Origin: a virus
Lineage: Duplodnaviria > Heunggongvirae > Uroviricota > Caudoviricetes
Length of the DNA stretch: 64,000 nt
Direction: 5' to 3' (one strand)
Virus record (IMG/VR): IMGVR_UViG_3300029156_000001
Span: 1-64,000 of that record
The translations under genes were made by a program, and so were the position numbers. The notes under the pieces were generated by a model. That model was not told the origin of the DNA. It ran no database searches and worked only from the letters and a program-made list of their open reading frames with translations. Of the stretch, positions 7,796 to 33,908 are shown piece after piece. Every line of letters begins with the position of its first letter. Positions within the stretch are counted from its first letter, which is position 1.

Positions 7796-7871
7796 TGGTC
7801 GGTCCCCTGGGGTACGATCCCAGATCTGACAGATTAAGAGTCTGCTATGTTGCCAATTACACCAAGGACCG
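7796..7871 (-). tRNA. tRNA, apparent anticodon CUU (Lys-type), atypical T-loop
   Basis: acceptor CGGTCCT/GGGACCG, D-stem GTGT/ACAT, anticodon arm GCAGA-CTCTTAA-TCTGT, T-arm CTGGG-ATCGTAC-CCCAG (non-canonical T-loop). Confidence 0.4.
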
Positions 7872-8674: not shown

Positions 8675-8682
8675 GGTGTATT

Positions 8683-8760
8683 TGGTCCGAGAGGGAGGAT
8701 TTGAACCTCCGCATCACGACTTATCAGGCCGTTGCCTTGACCAGACTTGGCTACTCTCGG
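8683..8760 (-). tRNA. tRNA-Ile (anticodon GAU)
   Basis: acceptor CCGAGAG/CTCTCGG, anticodon arm ACGGC-CTGATAA-GTCGT, T-arm GGAGG-TTCAAAT-CCTCC, encoded CCA. Confidence 0.6.
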
Positions 8761-8761
8761 T

Positions 8762-9034
8762 TTATAGCAGTCCACTAATGCGTGCTGCTTGTGCGGGCGT
8801 AAAAGGCCGCATGTTTTCGTAGTTGGAATTACCCGCGAGACGCTCGACCACTTCGACGCCATCGTACAGAGTGGCAAACCACAAGATATATCCCATAGGA
8901 GCAAATTGCTCTTGAAGTTTACGAACTTCTTGACGGGCCTCGTCAATGTTATTGACTTCAATATGAATATCTGAATCGCGGCTCGTAAAGGTGCCGTTGT
9001 GGATGCCCCACGCAAGTCTTAGTGTCTTATTCAT
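8762..9034 (-). CDS. hypothetical protein
   Basis: 90 aa ORF between tRNA genes. Confidence 0.3.
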   Translation of the reverse strand: MNKTLRLAWGIHNGTFTSRDSDIHIEVNNIDEARQEVRKLQEQFAPMGYILWFATLYDGVEVVERLAGNSNYENMRPFTPAQAARISGLL

Positions 9035-9375
9035 TTTACTACCAGTCCATAGCGTGATTTAATAGTAGCAGATTCTAGAACTACAACACGATCTTCTGGT
9101 TCAATGTAGACGCACAATAGGTCGCAAGTTGTATTATCGAAAGGAATTCGTTTTGTTCCTGATCTGTTCGGACGATGAGACTTAAGGGTAACAATCCATC
9201 CTGTGTCTTCTGGAGTTTTTGTTCTAGTTGACTTAACTTGAACTCGTTGCAGTCTATCTTTGTAGACAACTAAGTCAAAAGGAGCTTTGCCAGATGTGTC
9301 CATAAAGACAAAGTATCCCTGAGCGGCGAAATGTGCCGCACTTTTAAGCTCACCAATAGTTCCTAAATCAGACAT
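9031..9375 (-). CDS. hypothetical protein
   Basis: 114 aa ORF; start overlaps stop of upstream gene (coupled). Confidence 0.35.
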   Translation of the reverse strand: MSDLGTIGELKSAAHFAAQGYFVFMDTSGKAPFDLVVYKDRLQRVQVKSTRTKTPEDTGWIVTLKSHRPNRSGTKRIPFDNTTCDLLCVYIEPEDRVVVLESATIKSRYGLVVK

Positions 9376-9382
9376 ATATTTT

Positions 9383-9469
9383 TGGCGGAAGGTAGAGAGA
9401 ATCGAACCCCGGGCCTTTTACAACCCCCCTGGTATTCAACACCAGTTTGTCACCTTGACGGTACCTTCC
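9383..9469 (-). tRNA. tRNA-Ser (anticodon UGA), type II
   Basis: 87 nt, acceptor GGAAGGT/ACCTTCC, anticodon arm CTGGT-GTTGAAT-ACCAG, long variable arm, T-arm GGGG-TTCGATT-CTCT, encoded CCA. Confidence 0.6.
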
Positions 9470-9944
9470 ATTTTTATTCGTGACTCAATCGACGCACGTT
9501 ACCTAGTGCCTGATGCATGGCACGAGTATAACCTTCCCAAAAGCGATAATCACTCAGGCGAGCACGAAAAGCGTCACAGTCCTTATCGCCAATTTCAGTG
9601 AGTTCCTTTTCAGCGGAAGCGGCACGCTCTTGGGCCGACTTGAGTTCTTCCTCAAGCTCCGCAACGATGCCCTTGTACTCGAACTTACTGAGCACGACGC
9701 TTTAGTCCCCGCTTTGACCAAGGGGCTCGTTGACTCTTACGTTGCTCACGCCGACGGGCTTTGATAAAGCTCTCTTCGTTGGCCTCTTGGGTCGGACGCG
9801 GCATATAGCCACGGAGCCAACGAAGGATGGTTTCGTTCACAAGCTCACCATTACGTCGAGCTTCCATCAGAGACGCGATGGCGTCCTTGGGCGTCACTTT
9901 GCCCTTTTTGACCCGTTCGCGTAGCGAACCTTCTTTCAACAGAC

Positions 9945-10421
9945 TCATTCTAAGTCCTCCGGAAAATGTTTTTTGGTTATAACCTCCCCGATACCGAGAT
10001 CGAGGATGTCTCGCAGTAGTCGTTGTACGTCACCATCATACGGTGCTTTGAGCCGTACGTCAAGCCAAGAGTAGAATTTTTCGTCTTCGACTATCTCGAT
10101 CTCGGTATCGGGGAGATCTTCAAAGTAATCTGCGTCCGTTCCGGCCGCAGGCCGGATCCGAATGATGATGTCACTCTTGCGAGAAGTAGAAGGGCGTGGG
10201 CCTTTTGTTGTTTTGGTCTCACGGATATTCGCCTTAGGCGAAGTTCCGTCATTTTGGAAATTTTGCGGCCCACCCCTTAGTCTACTCTGCAACGCCTCCT
10301 CAGGCGACAGCCCGAGGCTGATCTCTTCTTTTGTACGTCGGAAACGCTTTTCACCAGTCACAGCCTTGTACGACTCAATGTCGTGGATCTGGGCCGCGTG
10401 TTCGGGAGTGATTTCATTCAT
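9945..10421 (-). CDS. hypothetical protein
   Basis: 158 aa ORF. Confidence 0.35.
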   Translation of the reverse strand: MNEITPEHAAQIHDIESYKAVTGEKRFRRTKEEISLGLSPEEALQSRLRGGPQNFQNDGTSPKANIRETKTTKGPRPSTSRKSDIIIRIRPAAGTDADYFEDLPDTEIEIVEDEKFYSWLDVRLKAPYDGDVQRLLRDILDLGIGEVITKKHFPEDLE

Positions 10422-10464
10422 GACACCCTAGTATAGCACGCAAAGCGTGCTGGTCAAGTTATTT

Positions 10465-10552
10465 TGGAAGTAAGTGTGGGATTCGAACCCACGGGGCTGT
10501 TACACCCGGCAGCTTAGCAAGCTGCTACAATAAGCCACTCTGTCAACTTACC
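10465..10552 (-). tRNA. tRNA-Ser (anticodon GCU), type II
   Basis: 88 nt, anticodon arm GCAGC-TTGCTAA-GCTGC, long variable arm, T-arm GTGGG-TTCGAAT-CCCAC, encoded CCA. Confidence 0.6.
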
Positions 10553-10559
10553 ATTATTT

Positions 10560-10634
10560 TGGAGACCGGGGTGCGAATCGAACGCACGTATGAAGGGTTG
10601 CAGCCAACAGCCTAAGCCACTCAGCCACCCGGCC
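10560..10634 (-). tRNA. tRNA, possibly Cys (anticodon GCA?) with U73; anticodon stem poorly paired
   Basis: acceptor GGCCGGG/CCCGGTC (G2-U71), T-arm GTGCG-TTCGATT-CGCAC, U73 discriminator, candidate loop CTGCAAC. Confidence 0.35.
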
Positions 10635-10910
10635 TAATTTACGGCATTGAAATGTGTTCTGTTGATAGATAGATGGTTCCGTCACGACTCCATGTACAAT
10701 ACCACCCTAAAGCAGCAAGGTGTTCTTCGATCAACTCTTTTCTGGTATTGCCATATATGTTTACGTGTGCATATAATTTACCTTGACGTAAACGTTTGGC
10801 AATAGTACGCAAAGCACGTCGAACTTCCTTTTGGAGTGTTTTTTGCTTGCGTTTTTCATACATGGGCAGATACTTGTCGGTAAACTGTCGTGTTGTCGGA
10901 ATTTTTACCA

Positions 10911-11477
10911 TCATCCAATCTCCAAATCTAATTTTTCGAAACCACGATCTTCTACCAACTCCAAGTCCGTTCCGGACTTGAGCATACGATCATACAATAC
11001 AATCGAGACAGCTACGGCGAGATTGGTGCAATGTCGCGACGGGATTTGAATAAAGTGATGACAGTGTTGAAGCGTCACACGCTCTAGGCCACCGTCTTCG
11101 GGACCGAAGACGTAGATGGCATTTTTAGGATGTTCAAACGTCGTCAAGGGCTGGGTGCCCGGCGTGATCTCTACGGCTACCGGAACGGCGTCTTGAAATT
11201 GATCAAAGGGTCTGTCATACTGCCTAAGCTCAACGTCCGCATAGCCCTTCATGCGTTCCTCGCGGGGCAGACGATGCTTGCGATTCATGGAGACGCGGTT
11301 GCCCGTGTACCACAGTTGCCCCATTCCGAAGCACGAACAAGACCGTAGGACAGCACCGACATTACGAGCGTGCTTCGGATTAGTTAGGACGACGGCAGGA
11401 GGTACGCCGAACTTCTTTTTGCCCGGCTCAAAGGACTCCATGTCGCGAGTGAGTTTATCACGTAGTTTGTTGGTCAT
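10911..11477 (-). CDS. SpoU/TrmH-family RNA 2'-O-methyltransferase
   Basis: NVGAVLRSCSCFG motif (SPOUT class N-x-GA-x-x-R-x-x-x-x-FG), 188 aa. Confidence 0.65.
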   Translation of the reverse strand: MTNKLRDKLTRDMESFEPGKKKFGVPPAVVLTNPKHARNVGAVLRSCSCFGMGQLWYTGNRVSMNRKHRLPREERMKGYADVELRQYDRPFDQFQDAVPVAVEITPGTQPLTTFEHPKNAIYVFGPEDGGLERVTLQHCHHFIQIPSRHCTNLAVAVSIVLYDRMLKSGTDLELVEDRGFEKLDLEIG

Positions 11478-11759
11478 CCCACAACTCTTTCAGAAATCTG
11501 GGTGGAAAAGCTTTCTTTTTACGTCTACACCAGTCAAATACAAAATCCCATTGACGTTGCGAAGGAAATGCTGGTTTGCTCGCCAAGTAAAACCAATTGA
11601 ACTTATCGATGCCTGGATCACCCTTCAAAGTCATGAAACCTCGACGCTCTACCTCTGCCTCGCCCTTTTGGCCAACGAGATCAAAGGCTAGATCACAGTG
11701 GCCCCAGGCATGACAAGCGTGAAACGTGCCATCGCGGGCAAGGTATCCGAGTTCAGGTT

Positions 11760-12182
11760 TCATGACACATCCTTTATTCGTCGTTGTTTGTCACAATGTT
11801 TACACTCATCATTAAGACCAAAGGGTTTACTGGCGTTTTTAGAAAAGGTATTGTGAGGTAGGTAAATACGACATCTGTAGCATCGAATATTACCATCTAT
11901 GTCAGTAATTCTCCGTCCTCGCCTACCGGCTTCACTATTGCATGTCTTGTGTGAAAGTGCAACGTTATTTACATCAAAGAAAAGCACCTGAGGGTTGTTA
12001 CTGTCCAGCCAACTAACCTTGTGGTCAATTGACATATCTTGTGGCCTTTCGATAATTTGACCACATCTATAGCATGTTGTCAATCTTAATCGCTGAGCAA
12101 AACTATACAGTAAAGCTTTTACTAGCCTGTTGGTAGCGGTACCTATAGGCATGCCCAACTGCTGTCTTTTCTTTTTGCTCAT
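11760..12182 (-). CDS. HNH endonuclease (start trimmed to internal Met to avoid overlap)
   Basis: CYRCG...IDHKVSWLDSNN...N...HKTCN HNH motif; ORF track extends to 12437 but overlaps the next gene. Confidence 0.55.
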   Translation of the reverse strand: MSKKKRQQLGMPIGTATNRLVKALLYSFAQRLRLTTCYRCGQIIERPQDMSIDHKVSWLDSNNPQVLFFDVNNVALSHKTCNSEAGRRGRRITDIDGNIRCYRCRIYLPHNTFSKNASKPFGLNDECKHCDKQRRIKDVS

Positions 12183-12262
12183 GTTGGTTACGGGGCTGAG
12201 AATTGCACTCAGTTCCCTTGATTCAAAGTCAAGGATGTTTCTGTTACACCACCCCGTAGTGA

Positions 12263-12595
12263 TTACTTTTTGCGGCGGGCCGCAGATTCGCGACGACGAC
12301 GACGCTCTCTCTTTTTCTTCGCGGAGTATTTGGCCAAGCCACCAATTACACCAACGAAAACGCATGCCGCCAGGAATAGTACCATGATGGCGGCGACAAA
12401 GGCGAGCGGTCCCCAAAAGGGACAAGTCACCCACCACCAGGACCAGCCAGCGACGACGCCGACTTCCCCAAGTTTGAGTCCGACGAACAGCAGGCCAAGC
12501 AGGCCAAGAATAGGAAATGCGGGGCGAGCGGTTTCGGTAGACATGATTTTCTTCCGTTTGTTCGGCTTAGGAGCCGAGGTCATAGTAAGTTTCAT
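12263..12595 (-). CDS. small membrane protein (two TM helices, basic C-terminus)
   Basis: hydrophobic segments GLLGLLFVGL and FVAAIMVLFLAACVFVGVIGGL followed by KKKRERRRRRE. Confidence 0.4.
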   Translation of the reverse strand: MKLTMTSAPKPNKRKKIMSTETARPAFPILGLLGLLFVGLKLGEVGVVAGWSWWWVTCPFWGPLAFVAAIMVLFLAACVFVGVIGGLAKYSAKKKRERRRRRESAARRKK

Positions 12596-12648
12596 GCCCT
12601 ATTATACTCGCTCTGCTCGTGAAGTCAAACTTTAACTTCGAAATGTTC

Positions 12649-12722
12649 TGGCGACCCCAGGGAGTATCGATCTCCCGCTACCACCGTGACAGGGTGGCGT
12701 TCTACCATTAAACTATGGAGTC
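12649..12722 (-). tRNA. tRNA-Asp (anticodon GUC)
   Basis: acceptor GACTCCA/TGGGGTC, D-stem GTTT/GAAC, anticodon arm CCACC-CTGTCAC-GGTGG, T-arm GGGAG-ATCGATA-CTCCC, encoded CCA; 5' 15 nt overlap the last codons of pyrB. Confidence 0.65.
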
Positions 12723-13523
12723 AAGTGATGTTGCTAGTAAGGTTTTGCGTATTTGAAGACCGTATGCGACTTGCTTAAAATACACAGCCCTTTTGTCTTG
12801 TTCAATTGCGTTCGGCAATTCTTGTGTGCGTGGTAGTGGATGCATGATGATGGCATCTTCCTTAATATCAGGAAGCATTTTCTCCTCCATCCCATACAAG
12901 ACACCTTCTCTTTTGAGAGAGCGTTCCGTTTGTGGTCGTGTCATGTAAATGACATCGGCTTTGCCAATTTCATTGATATCTGGAAAATCAAAGATGTCCT
13001 GCTTGACAACCTCGACATCAAATTGATTTAGAACAGCAATGAATGAATTGATTGTACGGGCGTTTTCCAGGTCTCCCCAGATCAGAACCCTGTTGCCGTC
13101 GATCCTGCCCTTTTCTCGCCAGATAGTATAGGCGTCCGTTAGAGCCTGCGTTGGGTGACTACCGATGCCATCACCGGCATTGATGATAGGAACGGCTGCT
13201 ACTTCGGCAGCTTTTTGTGCGGCCCCCATTTCTGGATGCCTTAGCACAATAATATCGGCGTAGTTGCCCACGACCTTAATAGTATCTTCTAAAGATTCGC
13301 CTTTGGTAGTCGAGCTAGACGCAGTAGCATTCTCTACGGTAATGACGCCCCCGCCTAACCTAAGTGCGGCCGACTCAAACGACAATCGTGTTCTGGTGGA
13401 TGGCTCGTAAAAGAGAGTGGCTAAAACAAACGGATCACACTCGGCCACTTCGGCAGCAGACGTATGGAAGATCCTTTCTAGCGTATCTCTAGAAAACTGA
13501 TCGGCTTTTAGAATGTGCTTCAT
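12708..13523 (-). CDS. pyrB: aspartate carbamoyltransferase catalytic chain
   Basis: STRTR carbamoyl-phosphate binding motif, HPTQALTD, C-terminal HPLPR (ATCase rather than OTCase); ATG at 13521-13523 preferred over the TTG listed at 13541. Confidence 0.75.
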   Translation of the reverse strand: MKHILKADQFSRDTLERIFHTSAAEVAECDPFVLATLFYEPSTRTRLSFESAALRLGGGVITVENATASSSTTKGESLEDTIKVVGNYADIIVLRHPEMGAAQKAAEVAAVPIINAGDGIGSHPTQALTDAYTIWREKGRIDGNRVLIWGDLENARTINSFIAVLNQFDVEVVKQDIFDFPDINEIGKADVIYMTRPQTERSLKREGVLYGMEEKMLPDIKEDAIIMHPLPRTQELPNAIEQDKRAVYFKQVAYGLQIRKTLLATSLDSIV

Positions 13524-13527
13524 GTTT

Positions 13528-13601
13528 TGGCAGGGGATCAACGAATCGAACGCTGGTCTTCGGGTTTGGAATCCGATATGTTACCACTACACCAATCCCC
13601 T
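13528..13601 (-). tRNA. tRNA-Trp (anticodon CCA)
   Basis: A1-U72 and G73 as in E. coli tRNA-Trp, acceptor AGGGGAT/ATCCCCT, anticodon loop TTCCAAA, T-arm CAGCG-TTCGATT-CGTTG, encoded CCA. Confidence 0.65.
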
Positions 13602-13735
13602 ATATTTCATAATGACACTTAAGATACCAAAGTGTAGTTTATCTGGCACTATGATTGGTGCCGCCCCCAGGTAACGCTCCTGGTCCCCCTGGGTTTCAAC
13701 CAGATGTGCAAGACTTCTACACCAAGGCGGCGATT

Positions 13736-14869
13736 TTACGGCAGGTCGATAGGATCTCGAAAGACGATACCACCTACGAAAATTCGTGGAATCTGATCGT
13801 CCGTCCGATCAAAGAATCGAACGGTCAATATTTTTCCAATGTACTGTTGTCGTTCTTCGTACTGCCGACGACGTTCCGGCATGGAACCCTTCCAAAGACA
13901 CTCAAAGGTTGCATCCGTCACGTCATTGCGACAGACAAAGACGGCATGACCCTTCATTTTACCTATACCATCGATCACGTCTACCACTTCGAACTCGGCA
14001 TCTTGAAACTCTTTCACTTTCAAGAGTTCAGCAGAACGATATCCCCAAATGTATGTGCCGTTATGACTTCGTAGAATAGCACCCTCATATCCCCGCGTTA
14101 CAAACGTGCCATATGCTGACCACATATCAGTTTCGTTTGCAACCAGGACGGTTGGCACCCTTTCCACATTCTTACTTGGCTGGAAATGAGGTTTGAGATA
14201 AAGAGCGTCGGAGCGAGCCTTCCATGAGAGAGTGTCGTCCCCTAGTACCACCGGCATATCGTAAACATGAAAGATGAGTCGGGCACTTTCGGGCTTATAC
14301 GATTTAGTGCCGGGGACCGCCGATTTTGCCCAAGACGTAATTCGCTGACATGATTCTCCGTGAGTGTATAGTTCGCCATCTAGAGTGATACCTTCGGGCA
14401 GCCAGTTGGCAAGCTGTTCTTGTACCAGGGGGATCGTCCACGGCTTCCCTTGGCGGGAGGTCAGGGCGATACTACCATCGGCGGCCCTCTGAGCAAGGCA
14501 ACGTACCCCATCTAGCTTAGGCTGAATGTCTACGCCGCCTTCATAACTAAGATTTTTCCTTTTCGAGCCCTTGAAAGAATGGGCCAACATAGGCAAGGGT
14601 AGTTGCTCTTGAGCATCCTCTGGAGTAAGCGAGTATTTCCGCTCTAGTTTATATGTGTGTAGCGACTGTGCCTCCAGTACGGCTTGCTCGTCGGGAGTAG
14701 TAGCATTCTTACGTCCCGCGTTCTTTGCCTCGGCTGTCTTACGACTGATTTGAAGCTTACCCCCGACGGTGCCATATTCCGTCAGGATATCTGCACCGTC
14801 GGTGAAGACTCGCCACTGACGGAGATCGCCGCCTTTAGCTTTGTGAAACAGTGTAGGTAGTTTTTGCAT
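13736..14869 (-). CDS. ATP-dependent DNA ligase (T7-type)
   Basis: motif I KLDGVRCLA (K-x-D-G-x-R), motif IV EGAILR, motif V LLKVKEF; 377 aa. Confidence 0.8.
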   Translation of the reverse strand: MQKLPTLFHKAKGGDLRQWRVFTDGADILTEYGTVGGKLQISRKTAEAKNAGRKNATTPDEQAVLEAQSLHTYKLERKYSLTPEDAQEQLPLPMLAHSFKGSKRKNLSYEGGVDIQPKLDGVRCLAQRAADGSIALTSRQGKPWTIPLVQEQLANWLPEGITLDGELYTHGESCQRITSWAKSAVPGTKSYKPESARLIFHVYDMPVVLGDDTLSWKARSDALYLKPHFQPSKNVERVPTVLVANETDMWSAYGTFVTRGYEGAILRSHNGTYIWGYRSAELLKVKEFQDAEFEVVDVIDGIGKMKGHAVFVCRNDVTDATFECLWKGSMPERRRQYEERQQYIGKILTVRFFDRTDDQIPRIFVGGIVFRDPIDLP

Positions 14870-15134
14870 TGGTGATTTTCAGCCAGCGGATCAAATGTTT
14901 GACAGTTGTGGGACCAATGAAACAGTGTCCTTCGCCAAAGGTGTCATGCACAAGCCTGTGACATGGTTTACAAAGGCCAATTGTGATGGCACCCTTACGT
15001 CTGGAAAGAAGGTGCTCGTTGAACCTAGGATCCTTACGTGGCACCATATGATGCCGCGTAAAATCGTCCTTTTTGCACGGTCCACAAGCTCGACAAGTGG
15101 GAGGATAGAGCCATTTGCGTTTTTTAGCCATCAA
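14835..15134 (-). CDS. small HNH endonuclease
   Basis: CxxCxxC ... HHMVPR ... CKPCHRLVH zinc-ribbon HNH signature. Confidence 0.6.
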   Translation of the reverse strand: MMAKKRKWLYPPTCRACGPCKKDDFTRHHMVPRKDPRFNEHLLSRRKGAITIGLCKPCHRLVHDTFGEGHCFIGPTTVKHLIRWLKITNAKTTYTVSQS

Positions 15135-15382
15135 TCAACCCTACTGAGAATGTAGTCTTCTTCGAGAGCGTCCCATAGCCATTGTACTGCTAGTGACTTA
15201 GATGAAAAACCAGGACTGAGTTCTTCATAAAAGCGTTTATACTGGACGTTTTTGATGCCGGTCCACCACAATCCCTTATGTTTAAAAACGGCGTACTGGC
15301 CATTGTCAAAGGTTGATATCTTCATAGTGTTTGGTAGGCCCGGAAGGAATTGCACCCTCATCTGATGGTTCGTAGCCACCAA
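15131..15382 (-). CDS. hypothetical protein
   Basis: 83 aa ORF translationally coupled to downstream HNH gene. Confidence 0.3.
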   Translation of the reverse strand: MVATNHQMRVQFLPGLPNTMKISTFDNGQYAVFKHKGLWWTGIKNVQYKRFYEELSPGFSSKSLAVQWLWDALEEDYILSRVD

Positions 15383-15696
15383 TGCTGTCTGTTACACCAC
15401 AGGCCCATTTGTTTCTGTTATTCTACACGCCGCAGGCGTGTTGGGGTGAAAGTTCGGTTCTGCCCCGAATCCTCTCGGGTCACAGCCGAGTAGGCTACTA
15501 TTACAACACAATCACCGTTCGCTCCGCTCACGGATTTAGATGTACCGCGAGCAGTCTTTCGAGCACCACAGACAAAACCTCTTCTGCAAGTAGATTCGTG
15601 TTGTCATGGTGTTCGTCTTACTAATCACCTTCCAGGCGGTCATATCATGAATGCCGAAGAAGCATATCACTTGACGCCACCACGGGCCGGTAAACA

Positions 15697-16365
15697 TCAG
15701 AATGAGTAGCCCAGAAGGACGAAGAGTGTACCGCCATTGAGGCTGGGGCTGTTCACGAAGATATCAGAGTCACTGGCTCCGAAGTGCTGCCGGTACAGAC
15801 CCGCGAGGCTCCAGTTGTCGGACATGAACCATCTGCTGCCGACTTGAGCGTACGGAGCATAGCCGGTGTCACGGTCACTGATAACAGACGTGTACGTGGG
15901 GTCGATGTCGGTATCGATACTGAAAGCCGAGACGCCACCACTAGCAAAAACTTGCCAACGATCAGTCAGCATCCAGTTTTTACGAAGGCCAAAGTAGAGT
16001 TCACGGACCGTCGAGGTTGTGTCACTCACGGGGCGGTTTTCGTAAAAGCCGTCGCTGGAAATGTTCTGGCCCAGCGAAAAGCCAACTTCCGGACCGAAGC
16101 CGTCCTTGCCGCAGAAATCGGCCTGGACGGTAAAAAGCTGTTGCTCGTCGGTTTGCTCCCAATCATTCTGGGCATCGTAGTTTCGCCAACCGTATCCGAT
16201 ATCGACGGTCGGGGCGAGTTGTCCTTGCGGGCCTTGACAGGCGGCGAGGAGGACTAGGGTTGCCGTAGCAAGTAGTAGATTCTTCATGCGTGCATTATAC
16301 TGCACGCATGGAGGGTTGTCAACCTTCTTCTGCTTCAATTTGTTGCAGGGCGTGTGCTTTGGCAA
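15697..16365 (-). CDS. outer-membrane beta-barrel protein with lipoprotein-type signal (Lom/Ail/OmpX-like)
   Basis: signal peptide with LAAC lipobox, alternating amphipathic beta-strand pattern, aromatic-rich, C-terminal ...GYSF (terminal Phe typical of OM beta-barrels). Confidence 0.5.
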   Translation of the reverse strand: MPKHTPCNKLKQKKVDNPPCVQYNARMKNLLLATATLVLLAACQGPQGQLAPTVDIGYGWRNYDAQNDWEQTDEQQLFTVQADFCGKDGFGPEVGFSLGQNISSDGFYENRPVSDTTSTVRELYFGLRKNWMLTDRWQVFASGGVSAFSIDTDIDPTYTSVISDRDTGYAPYAQVGSRWFMSDNWSLAGLYRQHFGASDSDIFVNSPSLNGGTLFVLLGYSF

Positions 16366-16497
16366 TGCCTACCTCAGAGGCAAACTTGAAAGCGAAAATT
16401 AGGACTGTGCCTGTAATTACCGCAATTAGGACTTTTGAAGTGTTTTCGTTGATTTCGATTTTCATTAATCTCGTGCCTCGACTAGAGTGGTCGGGAA

Positions 16498-16570
16498 CCC
16501 GAGAATCGCACTCGGAGCTTCGGCTTATGAGGCCGACGTGTTACTGTTACACCAATTCCCACTCGTTTTA
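16498..16570 (-). tRNA. tRNA-Met (anticodon CAU), elongator or Ile2-type
   Basis: D-stem GTGT/ACAC, anticodon arm TCGGC-CTCATAA-GCCGA, T-arm CCGAG-TGCGATT-CTCGG, encoded CCA. Confidence 0.55.
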
Positions 16571-16786
16571 CTCATGATAGTAAAATTGTGCATTACGACT
16601 AAGATCCTGCATCGCCTGTCTTAGAACGAGAGTGTGTTCATCAGGACCGCGATCCCAAATAAAACATTCCATCGCGGCGTGCCGACAGGCATTAGGCATG
16701 TAGATGCTACCATTCCGAAGAGGGGTTTCAAAATCAGGAATGATAGCTACAACAGCATTAAAGAGATCTTCTTTAGAATATTGCAT
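16568..16786 (-). CDS. hypothetical protein (start trimmed to internal Met)
   Basis: ORF track start 16822 would overlap the upstream tRNA; internal Met at MQYSKEDLF avoids the overlap. Confidence 0.3.
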   Translation of the reverse strand: MQYSKEDLFNAVVAIIPDFETPLRNGSIYMPNACRHAAMECFIWDRGPDEHTLVLRQAMQDLSRNAQFYYHE

Positions 16787-16802
16787 AGTGTTTGGTAGGG
16801 TA

Positions 16803-16881
16803 GGTGGGAGTCGAACCCACAAACGACGCAGATTTTAAGTCTACCGGCGATGCCAATTAGCCTACTACCCCGCTTGTTTCT
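16803..16881 (-). tRNA. tRNA, short variable arm, apparent anticodon UAA (Leu-type) with A73 and encoded CCA
   Basis: paralog of the 6183/6273 tRNAs: acceptor GGGGTAG/CTACCCT, D-arm TAGGCTAATTGG, anticodon arm GTAGA-CTTAAAA-TCTGC, T-arm GTGGG-TTCGACT-CCCAC. Confidence 0.5.
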
Positions 16882-17326
16882 TTTTCAAGGCAATTGTGCC
16901 TTCGCGTACCCTAACACGATACCCATTATCGGTCCAGAAAGCACATTCGTCAACAGCGTCTTGGCGTCTGCCAATTGTGACCTGTAAGGCTTGCCAAGGC
17001 TCGTTGTCGGCATTGCGGCCCAGAATGATCCAGACGGGTTCGCTAGTCTCCACGGACTTCCCCTTCTATACGATCAAAGTCTTGCATGGCCGCATGAGCT
17101 TCGTAGTAGCCGTTATTGGTGCCGGGGCTGGTACTGGACTTTTTGATGGCCAATACAAGGTTGCTTAGGCCACGAAATACCCGAATCCATTGATCTCGTG
17201 AGAGCGAGAAGGGCTGTTCGGGTGTACTCGCAGGACCAGATTTGATCAGCCAGTCTTGGTTTTCGTCAGTCATACCCTACTATACCCCAGGAAGTGATGA
17301 TTGTCAAGCACTTCCTGGGGGTTGTT

Positions 17327-17404
17327 TGGTCGGAGCGGCTGGATTCGAACCAGCGTTCTGTAGCTTCCAAGGCCACCGAGGACTCCAGACTCCTCCACGC
17401 TCCG
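17327..17404 (-). tRNA. tRNA-Pro (anticodon UGG)
   Basis: C1-G72 as in bacterial tRNA-Pro, D-stem GAGG/CCTC, anticodon arm GTGGC-CTTGGAA-GCTAC, T-arm GCTGG-TTCGAAT-CCAGC, encoded CCA. Confidence 0.7.
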
Positions 17405-17412
17405 ATTGTGAT

Positions 17413-17501
17413 TGGCTCATGGACTAGGGTTTGCACCTAGGGTGGGGATTACTCCCGCGAGCTTAACAGGCTCGTGCCTTCGACTACTCGGCCATCCATG
17501 A
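17413..17501 (-). tRNA. type II tRNA with Tyr-like body but anticodon GUU
   Basis: 89 nt, acceptor TCATGGA/TCCATGA, D-arm GCC-GAGTAGTCGAA-GGC, anticodon arm CGAGC-CTGTTAA-GCTCG (E. coli tRNA-Tyr has CUGUAAA), long variable arm, T-arm CTAGG-TGCAAAC-CCTAG, encoded CCA. Confidence 0.5.
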
Positions 17502-17504
17502 ATA

Positions 17505-17579
17505 TGGCTGGGATACTACGACTCGAACGTAGAATACAAGAGTAACAATCTTGCGTGTTACCAATTACACCATATCCCA
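17505..17579 (-). tRNA. tRNA-Asn (anticodon GUU)
   Basis: U1-A72 as in E. coli tRNA-Asn, D-stem GTGT/ACAC, anticodon arm CAAGA-TTGTTAC-TCTTG, T-arm CTACG-TTCGAGT-CGTAG, encoded CCA. Confidence 0.65.
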
Positions 17580-17585
17580 ATGTTC

Positions 17586-17661
17586 TGGTTGCGGGACTGA
17601 GATTCGAACTCAGGTTGCCGGATTCAGAGTCCGGAGTATTGGGCCTCTATACTATCCCGCG
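17586..17661 (-). tRNA. tRNA-Gln (anticodon CUG) with unpaired C1xA72
   Basis: acceptor CGCGGGA/TCCCGCA, D-stem GTAT/ATAC, anticodon arm CCGGA-CTCTGAA-TCCGG, T-arm CTGAG-TTCGAAT-CTCAG, encoded CCA. Confidence 0.6.
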
Positions 17662-17750
17662 TTTCAAAAGACGCGACCACTCGCCACCCACCCCGGATTA
17701 CCTCCTACGGAGGAGAGCCGGGCCTAAGCCTTGTCCGTCGCGTCTTTGTT

Positions 17751-18011
17751 TTATCTATTTGCCTCGCGAAGAATGGCGTCTACTTCATCCATGTCTGGAC
17801 TACTTGTGTTATGCCAATAGAAGCACGTTCTACAACAGTAGGGACGAATACCCTCTCGACTATCGGCTTCTCGTGCCGCTTTGGCAGATTTATAAGCCCT
17901 CTTGCTGTAGCAACGTTTTTCAAGCCGTTCTTTTTTGAGTTGTCTTTTAGATTTCATTGTTTTGGTAGGCAATGAGGGTAACGATCCCCCGTCTTTGGTA
18001 TGTAACACCAA
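17751..18011 (-). CDS. hypothetical zinc-finger protein
   Basis: 86 aa, CC...C...H cluster near C-terminus (YCCRTCFYWH). Confidence 0.3.
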   Translation of the reverse strand: MVLHTKDGGSLPSLPTKTMKSKRQLKKERLEKRCYSKRAYKSAKAAREADSREGIRPYCCRTCFYWHNTSSPDMDEVDAILREANR

Positions 18012-18026
18012 TGTTCTTCCATTGAA

Positions 18027-18419
18027 CTAATCGCCCTCTTGTTCCGTCTTCGGAACATTGTCTGAATGCGGTGCTACCGCTTGCCACTGTACATCGTTAT
18101 AAGGATCTGACAAATCGTCACAGTAATGGGTTTGCTTGGAACGATTGAACGTTAAGCGTCCCTCTCGATGCAGTTTGCCTTTGTCAAATTTGAAACGCAG
18201 GCACGATTTGTAGCCCGCTTGAGTATTTGGCTCGAAAAAGATACGGACCGCTTCATATAGGTGGACCGGCGGAAAAACTAGGCCATCTTCCTCAAACGAA
18301 GGAATGGTAAATTTGATCCACCAATAACCTTCGCTGCCGGCACTGATCCACTGTTCATAAGTGGGAGGGTTGTTTTGCCACGTCATGCCACAGTATAGCA
18401 CTCGATGGTGGCATGTCAA
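18027..18419 (-). CDS. hypothetical protein
   Basis: 130 aa ORF in co-directional gene string. Confidence 0.35.
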   Translation of the reverse strand: MTCHHRVLYCGMTWQNNPPTYEQWISAGSEGYWWIKFTIPSFEEDGLVFPPVHLYEAVRIFFEPNTQAGYKSCLRFKFDKGKLHREGRLTFNRSKQTHYCDDLSDPYNDVQWQAVAPHSDNVPKTEQEGD

Positions 18420-18685
18420 GCTATGACTTCAAATTCTTCTAGAAGCCATACCTCATCATCAACCCATTCGGACCAACCATCGAAGAGAATCTCAATAGAC
18501 CAACGTTCTGGTCCGTTTTCCTTAATTCTCACTTGACAACCCTCATGTTGTCCTTGTGTCCTAAGGTCAGCCTGTAAATCTTGCTGGATAAATGCGATTG
18601 CTTTTTGCTTATCTAGATAGATATCAATATTTTGTGGTGAACAATCGACCGAATCCCACCCTCGTCTAACAAGATATACTTTCAT
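18416..18685 (-). CDS. hypothetical protein
   Basis: 89 aa ORF, start/stop coupled with neighbours. Confidence 0.3.
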   Translation of the reverse strand: MKVYLVRRGWDSVDCSPQNIDIYLDKQKAIAFIQQDLQADLRTQGQHEGCQVRIKENGPERWSIEILFDGWSEWVDDEVWLLEEFEVIA

Positions 18686-18945
18686 GAGATTCTAATCTTA
18701 ATTTTGCGATAAACACCACTTTTTGCTGTTAGGTGATGCAAATGCACAAGATTCAAATACTCAAGAAACTCCTGTTTGTTACGATAAACAATATGGGGAC
18801 ATTTTCCGCTTTTGTTTTTTAGTATCCATTGATCATTTTCTACGCAGACAATGTACTTCTCTTGAATTTCATCTTTGAGCACCCATGCGACATGATCACC
18901 TGGGTCTACATCGTAAATGAGTGGGCTGTTATCTAGTATTAGCAT
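18682..18945 (-). CDS. hypothetical protein
   Basis: 87 aa ORF, coupled. Confidence 0.3.
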   Translation of the reverse strand: MLILDNSPLIYDVDPGDHVAWVLKDEIQEKYIVCVENDQWILKNKSGKCPHIVYRNKQEFLEYLNLVHLHHLTAKSGVYRKIKIRIS

Positions 18946-19019
18946 ATTAATGTTTTGGAGCCGGTTCCCGGTACCGCCCCGGGGGCTAAAGCTTACAAGG
19001 CAATTGTTTTACTATTAAA

Positions 19020-19391
19020 CTAAACCGGCTTACGCCTAATGCGTTTGGCGTTTTTGTGTGATTTGAAAGCACGGCAAATACTGCATCTACAGCCACCATC
19101 ATACTTTCTATTTGTACCATGTTTTGCTGGTGGAATCTGACTAATGGTTTTAGCAAGATGACATGGGTGGCATAAAACTTGACACTTCGCAAGTTCTTTT
19201 TGTAGTCTCTTTTCGGACCAAGACCAAACTCTATGTTCTATTTTTTGACTAGGATCAATATGATCAACCTCTAGTCTTTTACTGGAGCCACACTTTACAC
19301 AAGGACCATTTTTCTCTAGCCAATCAGCACGTCGTCGAGCCACCATGAGACGCTGATATTCTCGTTGTTTATTTGGATCCTTGTATGGCAT
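19020..19391 (-). CDS. HNH endonuclease
   Basis: CVKCGS...EVDHIDPS...CHPCH motif. Confidence 0.7.
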   Translation of the reverse strand: MPYKDPNKQREYQRLMVARRRADWLEKNGPCVKCGSSKRLEVDHIDPSQKIEHRVWSWSEKRLQKELAKCQVLCHPCHLAKTISQIPPAKHGTNRKYDGGCRCSICRAFKSHKNAKRIRRKPV

Positions 19392-19623
19392 ATGGACTAA
19401 AAGACATCAGGCACTTTCCATGTATCTTTCCAAATTGGTGCTCGAAAAACACGATCTTCTTTTGTGTTGTGCCATGCTCCGCATGAACATGGGCCATCAT
19501 CAAGATCGCATTCTGATCCGTTACGTCTTTTCCATCCTGTGCGTTCGTCCGTTTCCCAATCGGTATCGAAGACCGCTTCTAGGTAACCATCTTCGCGATA
19601 TACACATCTGGTGATAGCCATAA

Positions 19624-19929
19624 CTATTTGTACAGCTTAAAGCTTTCGAAAAGTTCAGGCCACTCTTTACGGGGACAGAATGCGACCGCAACAGTTTCGT
19701 GACCAATGACGGATTCCGTGATGACAACGTGATTGTCCGCGTTAGACATAGCTTGTGCTAATTCTGCATCGTTTACGATACAGGTGACCTTCCTAAAGGA
19801 GTCCGCAAGCCATCGTTGCATATCTCGATGGCCCGCATACTTGAGAAAGCAAGCCACCGAGGCGTGAGCGACACCATTTATTGCATACCCAAGGGGTACG
19901 TCTTCTCGCACCAGAATATACATTTTCAT
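19624..19929 (-). CDS. peptidyl-tRNA hydrolase, PTH2 family
   Basis: KMYILVREDVxLGxxxxGVAHASVA aligns with PTH2 MxLVVRxDLxMGKGKxAAQCSHA; C-terminal ...FKLYK matches PTH2 C-terminus (...LKLY); ~100 aa size. Confidence 0.7.
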   Translation of the reverse strand: MKMYILVREDVPLGYAINGVAHASVACFLKYAGHRDMQRWLADSFRKVTCIVNDAELAQAMSNADNHVVITESVIGHETVAVAFCPRKEWPELFESFKLYK

Positions 19930-19941
19930 GTCGCTACTCTC

Positions 19942-20286
19942 CTAATTATTGTAAGCCTTACGGCCAAAAAGTCGTACTGCACGGTACATCATATGACGTT
20001 TAATTAAACCTACCCCCGACTCTTTCATGACACGTAAAAAGATGCCGTCTGCATCCTTGCGTGATACCTCATGTGAGGAATAGAGCCAATCATGTAGGAC
20101 TGCCGCCTTGGTATACTTGCCTGTGGGCGGCACAATGTTCCAGAATGCACGGGGCACACTGGCAAAGTCTGTTGTAAATGAAGCGGGAACAACAAAAGTA
20201 TCTCTAGCACCCTCGTACACGAGATCTTGCAGTAGTTCCCATCTGTCGTTTTTACCCTCTTTAACGTGAAGCTCTGTTACGAACAT
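19942..20286 (-). CDS. DUF1353-family phage protein
   Basis: TDFASVPR...W...P..G.Y..AAVLHDWLY pattern characteristic of DUF1353. Confidence 0.45.
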   Translation of the reverse strand: MFVTELHVKEGKNDRWELLQDLVYEGARDTFVVPASFTTDFASVPRAFWNIVPPTGKYTKAAVLHDWLYSSHEVSRKDADGIFLRVMKESGVGLIKRHMMYRAVRLFGRKAYNN

Positions 20287-20333
20287 ATTATCCCCCCTTT
20301 TTTATTAGGACCCATAAGATAATACGCTAAGAG

Positions 20334-20408
20334 TGGTACTCCGAGAGGGTATCGATCCCTCTTCTCCACCTTGAAAGGGTGGTATCCTAGCCAGTAGACG
20401 ACCGGAGC
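20334..20408 (-). tRNA. tRNA-Glu (anticodon UUC)
   Basis: acceptor GCTCCGG/TCGGAGT, anticodon arm CCACC-CTTTCAA-GGTGG, T-arm GAGGG-ATCGATA-CCCTC, encoded CCA. Confidence 0.6.
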
Positions 20409-20439
20409 TATCGGGCGGCGATGCCGCCCTCAAAGTTAT

Positions 20440-20517
20440 TGGTCTGCGGTGTGAGAATCGAACTCACCCGGAGAGATCAGGCCCCGACTCTCCCCTTAGG
20501 GAGTTCCCTGACCGCAG
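20440..20517 (-). tRNA. tRNA-like element with canonical acceptor/T-arm but unresolvable D/anticodon arms (possible pseudo-tRNA)
   Basis: acceptor CTGCGGT/ACCGCAG, T-arm GTGAG-TTCGATT-CTCAC, encoded CCA; interior contains GGAGAG...CTCTCC stem enclosing a 12-nt loop instead of a 7-nt anticodon loop. Confidence 0.35.
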
Positions 20518-20840
20518 TATTCTTCACGAAGCTCGCGAAGGGCAATTTTGTAGAGACGATAGTATTCGCTATCATCAGGTAGGCCGTGACGGTAATCCGA
20601 ACCACGAAGTTCGTGATATAGATTTAGGGCGGCGGTGATCTTGGGCTTCCTTCTTTGTGCCATGTTGGCCGCCCTAAAGGATTCCTTAAGCTTCACTCGT
20701 TGAGCAGTAGGAATGTCGCTCCAGCTAACGTCGCCCCAACTGGTGCGGGGGAACTTAGGAAGCGGACCAGTCTTACGTTCAGACTTTAGTTGTACTTGCT
20801 CGACTGCCAGATCTTTGATTAGTTGTTTCAATTCTCTCAT
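20496..20840 (-). CDS. hypothetical protein
   Basis: 114 aa ORF; 3' end overlaps the tRNA-like element. Confidence 0.3.
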   Translation of the reverse strand: MRELKQLIKDLAVEQVQLKSERKTGPLPKFPRTSWGDVSWSDIPTAQRVKLKESFRAANMAQRRKPKITAALNLYHELRGSDYRHGLPDDSEYYRLYKIALRELREEYCGQGTP

Positions 20841-20944
20841 ATCTATTCTCCATTTAAAGCGTTTACTTGAAATACAAAAACAGATATGGTGTCACGGTGG
20901 TCTATGTGTCTACGACATGATTTGCCTTTCGGGCAAAGAGTTGA

Positions 20945-21020
20945 TGGAGGGCACGGTGAGGTTCGAACTCACATCTTCCCGGTTTAGAGCCGGGTGCATT
21001 TCCACTAATGCTACGTGCCC
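20945..21020 (-). tRNA. amber suppressor tRNA (anticodon CUA), U73
   Basis: fully canonical 76-nt fold: acceptor GGGCACG/CGTGCCC, D-arm GCAT-TAGTGGAA-ATGC, anticodon arm CCCGG-CTCTAAA-CCGGG (U33, anticodon C-U-A, A37), T-arm GTGAG-TTCGAAC-CTCAC, encoded CCA. Confidence 0.65.
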
Positions 21021-21147
21021 CTACTCCCCGCTAACGGGGGAATTGTAAATGGCTGCCCTGGTTATGTTGCTTCCTTAGGAATTCAGATATCATGCAAGAA
21101 AACTGGCTACAGCCGCATTTGTTTCTGCCGCTTTTGCGGCAGTTGAG

Positions 21148-21223
21148 TGGTGGAAAGCTGGGGAATCGAACCCCACACACGGAGCTTGCAAAGCTCTGTC
21201 GCCTCCTTGGTACATGGCCCCCC
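21148..21223 (-). tRNA. tRNA-Ala (anticodon UGC), G3-U70
   Basis: acceptor GGGGGGC/GCTTTCC with G3-U70, anticodon arm (A)GAGC-TTTGCAA-GCTC(C), T-arm TGGGG-TTCGATT-CCCCA, ends CCACCA; D-arm poorly defined. Confidence 0.45.
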
Positions 21224-21234
21224 CATTATAAGCG

Positions 21235-21312
21235 AGTGACTAGGATTCGAACCTAGATCGTGAGCGTCAATAAGACTGGCCAGTCTGGGTGCTCATGTGT
21301 TACCGTTACACT
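21235..21312 (-). tRNA. tRNA-like element with expanded (~25 nt) anticodon-region loop; possible pseudogene
   Basis: T-arm CTAGG-TTCGAAT-CCTAG, D-arm GTGT-AACGGTA-ACAC, acceptor AGAGTGA/TCACTCG, no encoded CCA; TGAGC...GCTCA stem encloses 25 nt including palindrome AGACTGGCCAGTCT. Confidence 0.3.
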
Positions 21313-22664
21313 ATCACTCTATTCTCATATGTCTTTTACAGCATCTTCCGGAAGCTTCGTCTGTTTCTGTTACACTGACGTTGACATAATCGAAGTTCTA
21401 AAACTCGAAAAAGGTAGGACTTGCACCCACCAGCGGTTGTACGACCTATTTAGCTGCCTAATATTTTACGAGGACTCGAACCTCTTACCCTCCAAGGGAA
21501 TGCCGAATCGAACGGCTAACTGCTATTTTCATTTTCGAGCGTTTTGAAACGCAGGCACGACTGGAATCGAACCAGTATTTCCCTGCCGGGCGTACTATCC
21601 ATATTATACTACGTCTTAGTCCTGCGTTGAAAGATAGAGCATCTTGCGATCCCCTTCGTTTGTTTCGCTAGGATTCGCTGTAAATTCTTTCAAGGGCTTC
21701 CACACCCTCACCGGATCGTACGAACCCCGGCGGCTTCTACAACTATTACTATCCACAAACAAACTGAGGCTACGTCACACCTGTCGCAAGTTCACGTAGT
21801 CAGGTTCAGAAGGCATCGGCAATGTACTAGTCATTGCTTACTGAATTCATTTCCTTCGTCTGCCATACTCTATTGTACTATTGTAGGGGTTAAGGACTCC
21901 CTACGAGCCCCAATTTTGGTAACCACTGAAATTGGAAACGGGGCCGATTCACCTTTTTGGATCCACACTTTTATCTTGTCGGCAAAACCATTAGTGTTCT
22001 TAAATCTCGCACCGATCTAGTATAGGCAGCATTCCCGTGGTGACACACGGTCTCTTGCCACAACCTTAATCGTACGCTTCGGATGCGTCACCATCCATCC
22101 CTGTACTCGCTCATCCAGCTTCCGCAACGCTAGTGGATACCAGCCTTGCCGAAGGCAAGCTTTTCTCTATCCTGCGGCACACCCGAAGGCGACCGACTAA
22201 CAGCCTCAGCCCGGCCAAGAGCATAAGGTTTAATGTCCGGAGAACTCGGACAATACGTTCGCTTCGCTCACGAAGCGTTGATTTTGCGGGTTATGGGCCT
22301 CCCGCCAGCCACCTAAGAGTAACCGTCCGCTTTGACGTAACGAGACAGCAAGCGTAGCCGTCTCCCTCTTTCGGTCGTTCGATTTTGGAGCAAAAGCTCC
22401 AAGGAATATATCGTGCCGGTAGCTAAGCGGCAGCCGGTGATCGCTAATACAGGCCAAGTTTCCATCGATGTTTCCATCGTGTACTGACAAGCTGGTGGCT
22501 GGACGATACGTCCCTTACAGCAGCGGACGCTGAGCGTCTCCGCTGCCGTAGAGGTGATCCCGAGTTGTCGGATGGCATCGCTGCCAGAGCCCGAGGTATT
22601 GCCGCCTCACGATCCCCTGCGAAAAGCAGGCTAGACCCGGCTCGTCACGTCACCGCGACAGGAC

Positions 22665-33905: not shown

Positions 33906-33908
33906 ATT

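Follow-up and report, generated by a model that had tools for sequence, protein, structure and literature searches.

A conserved CUA-anticodon tRNA and a linked small protein gene as a candidate amber read-through module in a standard-code phage lineage

We analyzed a 64,000-nucleotide stretch of a tailed phage genome (IMG/VR record IMGVR_UViG_3300029156_000001, positions 1 to 64,000; hereafter the window), in which a tRNA gene with the anticodon CUA, the type that decodes the amber codon UAG, lies just upstream of a small open reading frame (ORF) designated ORF114. The features at this locus are as follows.

20945..21020, minus strand: tRNA with anticodon CUA (amber-suppressor type), recognized by ARAGORN, by Rfam, by its minimum free energy (MFE) fold and by homologs in 10 other phage genomes
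20921..20937, minus strand: hairpin TTTGCC-CGAAA-GGCAAA, 7 nt 3′ of the encoded CCA, from sequence and fold
21026..21040, minus strand: small G+C hairpin CCCCCGTTAGCGGGG, 5 nt 5′ of the tRNA start, from sequence and fold
20496..20840, minus strand: ORF114 (114 amino acids [aa]; P0241), starting 105 nt downstream of the tRNA, with homologs beside CUA tRNAs
20838..20851, minus strand: Shine-Dalgarno-like GGAGA and the ATG of ORF114, as read from the sequence
6183..21320, minus strand: same-strand tRNA array of 24 ARAGORN tRNAs and one Rfam-only tRNA (18959-19029)

For the surroundings, the view was widened to 89 kb (record positions 1657-91064 of JGI 3300029169 Ga0168037_100002, made up of locus L009, the window and loci L001/L017; loci are designated here by L numbers). 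The window corresponds to positions 8672-72671 of that 105,365-bp contig, with 0 mismatches over an 11.6-kb overlap.

ARAGORN, which found 25 tRNAs in the window, placed a 76-nt tRNA exactly at 20945..21020 on the minus strand with the anticodon cta at position 34, and no tRNA was called on the plus strand of this interval. The Rfam tRNA family RF00005 matched 20948..21020 on the minus strand at 61.6 bits (E 6e-11; gathering score 29), the fourth-highest score among the tRNAs of the window, and the MFE fold of the minus strand was the cloverleaf (-30.4 kcal/mol, z = -3.2), with 1 of 200 shuffles equally good. The minus strand reads GGGCACG UA GCAU UAGUGGAA AUGC A CCCGG CUCUAAA CCGGG, followed by AAGAU GUGAG UUCGAAC CUCAC CGUGCCC U CCA. 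This is a type I body with 7-bp acceptor, 4-bp D, 5-bp anticodon and 5-bp T stems and a 7-nt anticodon loop, CUCUAAA, that provides U33, C34 U35 A36 and A37; it also has G18G19, a UUCGA T-loop, a 5-nt variable loop, the discriminator U73 and an encoded CCA, and its sole oddity is U14, where A is usual. By these features the gene is a canonical elongator tRNA (RF00005), and by the anticodon 5′-CUA-3′ at positions 34 to 36 it is of the amber-suppressor type. The original prediction, which had folded a canonical 76-nt cloverleaf by hand and read the same anticodon loop from the letters, was therefore borne out on both points by ARAGORN, Rfam and the MFE fold, with the strand settled as minus.

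ARAGORN labels the gene tRNA-Pyl, which is merely its naming convention for CUA. A tRNA-Pyl needs a 3-nt variable loop, a 6-bp anticodon stem and a 1-nt acceptor/D linker, whereas the tRNA in the window has 5 nt, 5 bp and a 2-nt linker (U8+A9); a tRNA-Pyl also has a small D-loop without G18G19 and no T-psi-C, whereas GG is present here in the D-loop and UUCGA in the T-loop. Furthermore, the Pfam annotations of genes called across the 89 kb contained no PylS or PylBCD domains. Although the anticodon and the label would suit a pyrrolysine tRNA, we regard the chance that the gene is one as vanishingly small.

The surroundings of the CUA tRNA yielded neither a sigma-70 promoter nor an intrinsic terminator, and the 3′ flank of the tRNA holds just one 6-bp A/U-rich hairpin. 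An Rfam search of 20400-23400 at E<=1 returned tRNAs and noise and no ribozyme, in a release (Rfam 15) that possibly does not hold theta ribozymes. Stable short hairpins occur a few bases 3′ of the Ala, CUA, Lys-CUU and Ser-GCU tRNAs on the minus strand (at 21125-21142, at 20921-20937, and downstream of the tRNAs at 7796 and 10465), possibly as signals for processing or punctuation. Upstream of Leu-CAG, the hairpin at 21413-21431 is T-arm-like and could be what remains of a tRNA.

The array that holds the CUA tRNA, between Ala-UGC and Glu-UUC, is interspersed with small ORFs and HNH endonucleases and is redundant, with two Gln, two Asn and five Leu tRNAs. Since the CUA tRNA lies inside a same-strand tRNA array, its occurrence there is far beyond chance.

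Relatives sought through rIIA were too few or too distant; those fetched around the DNA ligase had tRNA arrays syntenic with that of the window. CUA tRNAs recurred in L019/L020, L024, L027, L032, L069, L070, L072 (two copies), L073, L076 and L079, and 12 distinct sequences from 11 related phage genomes, the window included, were aligned. In the resulting cloverleaf, 96.8% of cells were in standard pairs, compared with 65% in column shuffles and 35-48% with slid partners, and changes on both sides were seen in 17 of the 21 stem pairs; 0 of 500 shuffles did as well, and C32 U33 C34 U35 A36 A37 were unchanged in 12 of 12 tRNAs. The tRNA of L032 shares its acceptor stem and D arm with that of the window, while the other members of the family diverge in sequence and keep the structure. 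The covariation and the invariant loop indicated that selection has preserved a working tRNA and, with it, the very anticodon CUA. A covariance model built from the first five sequences scored the family at 81-93 bits and the sense tRNAs of 650 kb of related loci at no more than 65 bits, and thus no recent sense-tRNA parent is evident.

The position of the CUA tRNA within the array differs among relatives, since it follows Tyr in L019, L027 and L070, His in L032 and L073, and Glu in L024. L018, in which the whole region is covered, is without a CUA tRNA, and no remnant of one was detected in the Ala-to-Glu interval of the tRNA-less relatives. L071 3879-3953 (= L029 370-444) is a decayed CUA tRNA with two deletions and the anticodon CCA, which ARAGORN calls tRNA-Trp; when set beside the closely related L070 3851-3926, it is missing a portion of the D arm as well as the 3′ acceptor strand, and the ORF114 homolog downstream is retained. 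This decayed copy, together with the redundancy of the array, would fit a neutral or decaying gene, that is, a redundant tRNA whose anticodon drifted to CUA by one base (from CUG, CUU, CCA, etc.). Against such drift stand 12 copies that are intact, show compensatory changes and do not vary in the CUA loop, as well as the gap in bit score that separates the family from any sense parent, and we consider it very improbable.

The CUA tRNAs of L072 (3538-3611 and 5209-5282) and L076 (2391-2464) lack G18G19 and have the T-loops UGAAAAU/UGAAAGC and not UUCGA; they retain the stems, U73 and CCA, and each L072 copy is preceded by a tRNA-Phe(GAA). A CUA tRNA-like gene in L007 has a weak anticodon stem, an unrelated sequence and no ORF114, and it was set aside.

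ORF114 is conserved in two motifs, LIKxLAxEQxxLKxxRKTG and (K/R)ITAALNLYHELRGSDYRH. AlphaFold, run with a 21-sequence alignment, returned a model with a pLDDT of 92 and helices at residues 2-22, 45-78 and 91-108, and the predicted fold is a long helical hairpin plus a third helix, in which the RKTG motif would close helix 1 and the (K/R)ITAALNLYHELRGSDYRH motif would surround the loop between helices 2 and 3. The protein had no match in Pfam, PHROG, NCBIfam, PDB (by sequence or fold) or BFVD, and the model resembled generic helical bundles only. No homologs were detected in cultured phages (tblastn against 50,697 phage records) or in GTDB genomes.

ORF114 homologs were present at every CUA-tRNA locus and at 0 of 9 family loci without a CUA tRNA. 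The association also held when the search started from the protein. An IMG/VR scan with a 6-sequence ORF114 alignment returned three known contigs and the new loci L069, L070 and L071, and a search of 5.8 billion proteins yielded only 21 unnamed ORF114-like proteins, of which three were traced to L072, L073 and L076. In five of these six new genomes (L069, L070, L072, L073 and L076), a CUA tRNA lies upstream on the same strand at a distance of 75 nt to 1.5 kb, and the sixth, L071, has the tRNA remnant. A profile search of 1.84 billion representatives recovered 159 ORF114 clusters, all of small stand-alone proteins, and a divergent subgroup (alignment A8) led to L079, where the gene is again paired with a CUA tRNA; on this 6.3-kb locus the CUA tRNA is the only tRNA and is followed by an ORF resembling PTH2 peptidyl-tRNA hydrolase (a sequence-based assignment) and then by the ORF114 homolog. 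In total, 11 of the 12 genomes with ORF114 have a CUA tRNA 0.08-1.5 kb upstream on the same strand, and the twelfth has the remnant. With its gap of 105 nt, the window contains the same arrangement of tRNA(CUA) and ORF114 on one strand within ~1.5 kb. Neither the conserved tRNA family nor this partner gene figured in the original prediction.

The contig is that of a phage, as had been assumed for the tRNA: the window encodes rIIA, rIIB, a CCA-adding enzyme, an RNA ligase, an ATP-dependent DNA ligase and RlaP, the large terminase, the portal and ~12 further structural ORFs (unannotatable) lie to its right, and a T4 Rnl1-type ligase, an AAA_33 kinase-like protein and SSB lie to its left. The same proteins are found on a 168,763-bp Logan contig, and the genome is ~169 kb. 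No nucleotide or structural-protein match was obtained in 50,697 deposited phage genomes; nucleotide searches of 50,697 phage records with the locus or the tRNA as query likewise gave nothing, nor did searches for the CUA tRNA in E. coli genomes or for the exact anticodon-arm pattern in IMG/VR. The rIIA protein is just ~35% identical to those of roseophages. The metagenomic relatives, of 150-183 kb, have DNA ligases that are 53-69% identical and a 623-aa structural protein up to 77% identical; one of them was binned in a Hydrogenophaga metagenome-assembled genome, a weak hint at the host.

Two of the genes concerned with tRNA are the following.

883..2148, minus strand: CCA-adding enzyme (tRNA nucleotidyltransferase), Pfam PolyA_pol and HD; PHROG 2244, E 5e-113
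19624..19929, minus strand: PTH2-type peptidyl-tRNA hydrolase, Pfam PF01981, E 1.4e-7

They belong to an unusually complete tRNA/RNA maintenance set that also comprises the AAA_33 kinase-like protein, an RNA ligase with a PHA02142 OB domain, the T4 Rnl1-type ligase, a SpoU 2′-O-methyltransferase (within the array) and RlaP (coordinates of the set: 883-2148, 2522-3004, 4751-5899, 10911-11477, 19624-19929 and 51710-52885 in the window, and L009 14678-15742). The set suggests pressure from tRNA-targeting host defences.

The original prediction raised the possibility that the suppressor serves stop-codon recoding of part of the genome or, alternatively, read-through regulation, and proposed a scan for structural genes that become full-length only when TAG is translated. 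We applied quantitative code tests to 73 kb (the window and L001) and inspected the genes across 89 kb of the ~169-kb genome. In the window, the standard code leaves the long ORFs uninterrupted, as the prediction had stated, and the terminase, portal and structural ORFs are likewise intact under code 11. Greedy coding density, computed on non-overlapping ORFs, was 91.8% under code 11 and rose to 94.0% when TAG was read as sense, a gain of 2.1 points that falls below the gain of 5-10% by which recoded phages are recognized (PMC10879173). Of the 131 ORFs with 60 aa or more, 30 are terminated by TAG, and both the terminase ORF and that of the 818-aa portal are among them; overall TAG is the stop of 23-26% of ORFs, and GC ranges from 0.44 to 0.58 across the window. 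The median number of codons to the next in-frame stop was 13 after TAG, 9 after TGA and 7 after TAA, and among the tRNA-bearing loci an in-frame continuation of at least 50 codons followed TAG in 16%, TAA in 14% and TGA in 12% of cases.

Same-frame pairs split by TAG were seen at 2176-2946, 19624-20286 (DUF1353 / PTH2), 34669-35283, 33858-34685 and L017 20364-21710, and were ruled out: some lie in a frame that is non-coding, and the rest are normal gene junctions that carry a Shine-Dalgarno site and an ATG; the DUF1353/PTH2 junction, for example, reads ...AAT TAG GAG AGT AGC GAC ATG, and one in the structural module reads ...AGG AGC TAG GTG ATG. In an all-against-all comparison, homologs spanning an in-frame TAG were antisense or off-frame shadows of conserved genes, with no case on the coding strand. 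Thus, no TAG-interrupted gene, structural or otherwise, was found in the 89 kb, and for this part of the genome, late genes included, the data lend recoding no support. Greedy ORFs ended in TAG more often in CUA-tRNA loci (98/378, 26%) than in other loci of the family (41/270, 15%), a difference (Fisher p = 0.001; per-locus Mann-Whitney p = 0.03) that rests on crude ORF calls and ignores kinship. Recoding has been proposed to be preceded by a depletion of TAG (preprint 10.1101/2021.08.26.457843), and this excess goes in the opposite direction.

Phages of code 15 (crAss-like, Lak and other phages; PMC9523058; PMC10879173) resemble the phage of the window in encoding a CUA tRNA for which charging by a host synthetase and competition with release factor 1 (RF1) are expected. 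Those phages have in-frame TAG codons within structural as well as lysis genes, low GC, a small number of TAG stops and, in many cases, theta ribozymes beside the tRNA, whereas here TAG is a frequent true stop, the late genes are intact and GC is ~49%. By density, in-frame TAG, TAG rarity and GC alike, the stretch seen, in which no lysis genes were identified, does not have the traits of a code-15 phage. Partial recoding could still be confined to a subset of genes, such as lysis and other late genes, in the remaining ~80 kb. A CUA tRNA is a hallmark of code-15 phages (preprint 10.1101/2021.08.26.457843), the view extends over 89 kb of ~169 kb, and the higher share of TAG-ended ORFs is a pattern that gene fragmentation could yield as well. 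However, TAG is the true stop of terminase and portal, the structural ORFs beside them are intact, the density gain is small, continuation past TAG is close to that past TAA and TGA, no coding-strand homolog runs across an in-frame TAG, and TAG is not depleted in this genome, whereas recoded lineages are low in GC and poor in TAG. We therefore judge partial recoding to be quite improbable.

An intact tRNA under selection, its linkage to ORF114 and a standard code throughout the 89 kb led us to the reading that we favor, with a probability of roughly 55%: a functional tRNA of the amber-suppressor type and ORF114 would form a conserved read-through module in a standard-code clade of phages of ~150-183 kb. 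The CUA tRNA would be transcribed with the minus-strand array, the array transcript being the probable source because no promoter or terminator of its own was detected. Its ends would be processed, and the encoded CCA would be kept up by the phage CCA-adding enzyme. A host synthetase would charge it, and U73 and a strong G1-C72 pair are conserved in the subclade. The charged tRNA would then compete with RF1 at UAG, so that some ribosomes continue to the next in-frame stop, over a median of 13 codons in the genome of the window. Since TAG is a common true stop and the genome is not recoded, this would amount to partial read-through of phage and/or host messages. ORF114 may act in the same process, for example as a protein that handles the tRNA or adjusts how it competes at UAG.

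The amber suppressors of E. coli (supE/supF/supD) and T4 (psu1+) are one-base anticodon mutants of identifiable sense tRNAs. The CUA tRNA shares with them the anticodon and the expected competition with RF1 at UAG; unlike them, it belongs to a family without an identifiable sense parent and is a long-conserved wild-type gene. A closer parallel in arrangement is the Xanthomonas jumbo phage XacN1, which carries two CUA tRNAs in a tRNA array, uses the standard code and has unidentified suppression targets (PMC5852040). The window likewise has a CUA tRNA in a large array, the standard code and no target found, and on these grounds it is of the XacN1 type. XacN1 differs in being a cultured myovirus of 385 kb with no detectable sequence relation, and neither a conserved partner gene nor family-wide conservation has been reported for it (PMC5852040).

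Which amino acid such a tRNA would insert was considered from its discriminator and its closest sense relatives. U73 occurs with G1-C72 in 9 of the 12 CUA tRNAs, even with a wholly different acceptor stem (L073: CCACGCG), and U73 is also the discriminator of the Cys, Gly, Thr and Ser-GCU tRNAs in these arrays. The closest tRNA within the window is Arg-UCU, with an identity of 54/76 at most and a similar D arm, and the closest among the relatives is Ser-GCU, with 57/76 at most; next in the family covariance model come Lys-CUU, Lys-UUU, Thr and the short Leu tRNAs (55-65 bits). Neither pairwise identity nor this ranking names a parent isotype. By the identity rules of E. coli, CUA suppressors tend toward GlnRS or LysRS via U35, and CysRS and GlyRS are guided mainly by U73; GlnRS favors G73 and a weak 1-72 pair, so insertion of Gln at TAG was not assumed. 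As U73 is not universal in the family, no amino acid was assigned.

Several observations weigh against the read-through module. No read-through target was found in the stretch examined, which covers 89 kb of the ~169-kb genome, and expression, charging and in vivo suppression of the CUA tRNA are predictions from sequence. TAG stops are frequent, even on terminase and portal, and for 9 of 30 the next in-frame stop is again TAG; efficient suppression would lengthen many phage proteins, which points to low or timed activity. The discriminator varies (U73 in 9/12, G73 in 2/12 [L069 and L079] and A73 in 1/12 [L070]), so the inserted amino acid may not be conserved. Finally, because the genomes are related, the linkage of the two genes could in part be the inheritance of one contiguous block and not shared function.

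Some of these observations would be expected if the CUA tRNA and ORF114 were an anti-defence or regulatory pair that inserts nothing at UAG. In such a pair, the tRNA could draw off a tRNA-targeting nuclease or modifying enzyme of the host as a decoy, be its substrate, or be a ligand of ORF114. The heavy tRNA repair set (CCA-adding enzyme, two RNA ligases, AAA_33, RlaP, PTH2 and SpoU) fits tRNA-targeting defences, the lack of a target and of any avoidance of TAG stops is in keeping with such a role, and a variable discriminator fits a function independent of any single synthetase. However, the invariance of C32-A37 in all 12 tRNAs and the retention of the four stems, CCA and, in most of the tRNAs, the T and D loops match the demands of ribosomal decoding, and a decoy for a nuclease that cuts sense tRNAs would be expected to carry a sense anticodon. 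We consider a non-decoding role unlikely.

The CUA tRNA may alternatively be a weak suppressor that buffers the phage's own amber mutations as a general insurance, with ORF114 as a mere linked neighbor. Phage suppressors can rescue amber mutants (McClain 1970, for T4, as cited in PMC8386662), and no specific target is apparent either here or in XacN1. Such insurance leaves unexplained the tight and long-lived linkage to ORF114 in both divergent subgroups, one locus outside any array included, and selection this weak would hardly keep the anticodon loop invariant while the stems turn over; it too appears to be an unlikely explanation.

The arrays of several relatives contain, in addition, a gene for a ~205-225-aa class-I release factor without domain 1, with GGQ and an RF1-like PxT loop 'VQRCPPTENKGRRHTS', which scored 230 bits with the NCBIfam model prfA, 154 with prfB and 81 with prfH. 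The copies are as follows.

L018 6510-7191, L019 6631-7306, L020 4010-4685 and L023 2954-3629: RF1-like gene, frameshifted
L024 15707-16372, L072 6886-7503 and L076 4882-5496: RF1-like gene in one frame

In three lineages the gene would need a +1 frameshift after codon 29 at UAU CUU UAG C or UAU CUU UAA C, which is the autoregulatory site of prfB, UAU CUU UGA C, with the stop codons of RF1; L024 has the same residues in frame (…AYLKYAE…). No homolog of this gene was found in the 89 kb of the window's genome. That ORF114 might be the missing domain 1 of the RF1-like factor was unsupported, as RF2 appeared merely at a Foldseek E of 4.3.

The ‘code change module’ of Jade phages combines a suppressor tRNA with a tRNA synthetase as well as a release factor upstream of the lysis cassette (preprint 10.1101/2021.08.26.457843). 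The present lineage is similar in that a suppressor tRNA is linked to genes of the termination sphere, with the RF1-like gene and PTH2 a few kb away in relatives; it is unlike Jade phages in that the constant partner is a ~110-aa protein of no assigned fold class, neither synthetase nor release factor, and that no recoded genes lie downstream. A more far-reaching reading, which we hold to be distinctly doubtful, is that the CUA tRNA and ORF114 are the core of a phage system that seizes control of UAG-specific termination and leaves the code unchanged. In relatives, the domain-1-less RF1 homolog, with its +1 frameshift at CUU-UAG/UAA, and PTH2 would join this system, and ORF114 might antagonize or redirect host RF1. 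If this were true, messages of the host with a UAG stop would stall or undergo read-through, resulting in host shut-off or defence evasion, and the phage would resolve its own UAG codons via the suppressor tRNA and/or the RF1-like factor.

The array has further peculiarities. Four minus-strand tRNAs with Leu anticodons (6183-6259, 6273-6350, 7532-7608 and 16793-16871; UAG, CAA, GAG and UAA) are only 77-79 nt long; a long variable arm is normal for bacterial tRNA-Leu, and these have a short variable loop yet a Leu-like 3-bp D stem and A73. Relatives hold both short and long versions (in L019, Leu-UAA of 88 nt and Leu-UAG of 87 nt), and Leu-CAG in the window (21232-21320, minus strand) has 89 nt and no encoded CCA. 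A type II tRNA of 88-90 nt with a long variable arm, G73 and the Asn anticodon GUU lies at 17413-17501 (minus strand) and recurs across the family (L018 8782-8870, L019 7590-7678, L022 6048-6136, L024 8763-8852, L027 8920-9008, L032 7876-7963, L070 5419-5507 and L076 6305-6393), mostly next to a normal 75-nt tRNA-Asn(GUU); this Ser/Tyr-like body with an Asn anticodon could serve deliberate mistranslation or be an unusual tRNA-Asn. The tRNA at 18959-19029 (minus strand), detected by Rfam at 43.9 bits and missed by ARAGORN, is Thr-UGU-like with an imperfect anticodon stem and U73, and it occupies the place of Thr-UGU in relatives. The tRNA-Gln(CUG) at 17586-17661 (minus strand) has a C1·A72 mismatch atop the acceptor stem, as initiator tRNAs do. 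HNH homing-endonuclease genes stand among the tRNAs on the minus strand (2986-3477, 19020-19391 and 22771-23250; also L009 14199-14681), and they probably drive the shuffling of tRNA order between relatives.

Two features lie outside the array. The 93-aa product of 489-770 (minus strand) is assigned to Pfam Acb5, an anti-CBASS family, in the precomputed annotation of the source contig. A block at ~33600-44000 has a GC of 55-58%, compared with ~48% elsewhere, reversed skews and ORFs that are mostly on the plus strand. It starts at the sole plus-strand tRNA (Met-CAU, 33640-33716), followed by an HNH-like ORF, and holds DUF932 (35392-36480), GP88 (37672-38322) and a SprT-like protein (40179-40679); the block may have come in as a mobile element or be a module with a different origin.

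Phage suppressor tRNAs have so far been explained almost wholly by stop-codon reassignment, and the standard-code cases, such as XacN1, have been left unexplained. What is new here is the long-term conservation, with covariation, of a CUA tRNA in a standard-code lineage, together with a dedicated partner protein. In this lineage the CUA tRNA is an old gene under selection; it occurs where TAG stops are frequent and, by a crude measure, more frequent than elsewhere in the family, and it is genetically tied to a small uncharacterised protein family seen only beside such tRNAs. The two-gene unit can be cloned and tested for what a suppressor does for a phage with an unchanged code, and ORF114 may be useful as a natural modulator of amber suppression.

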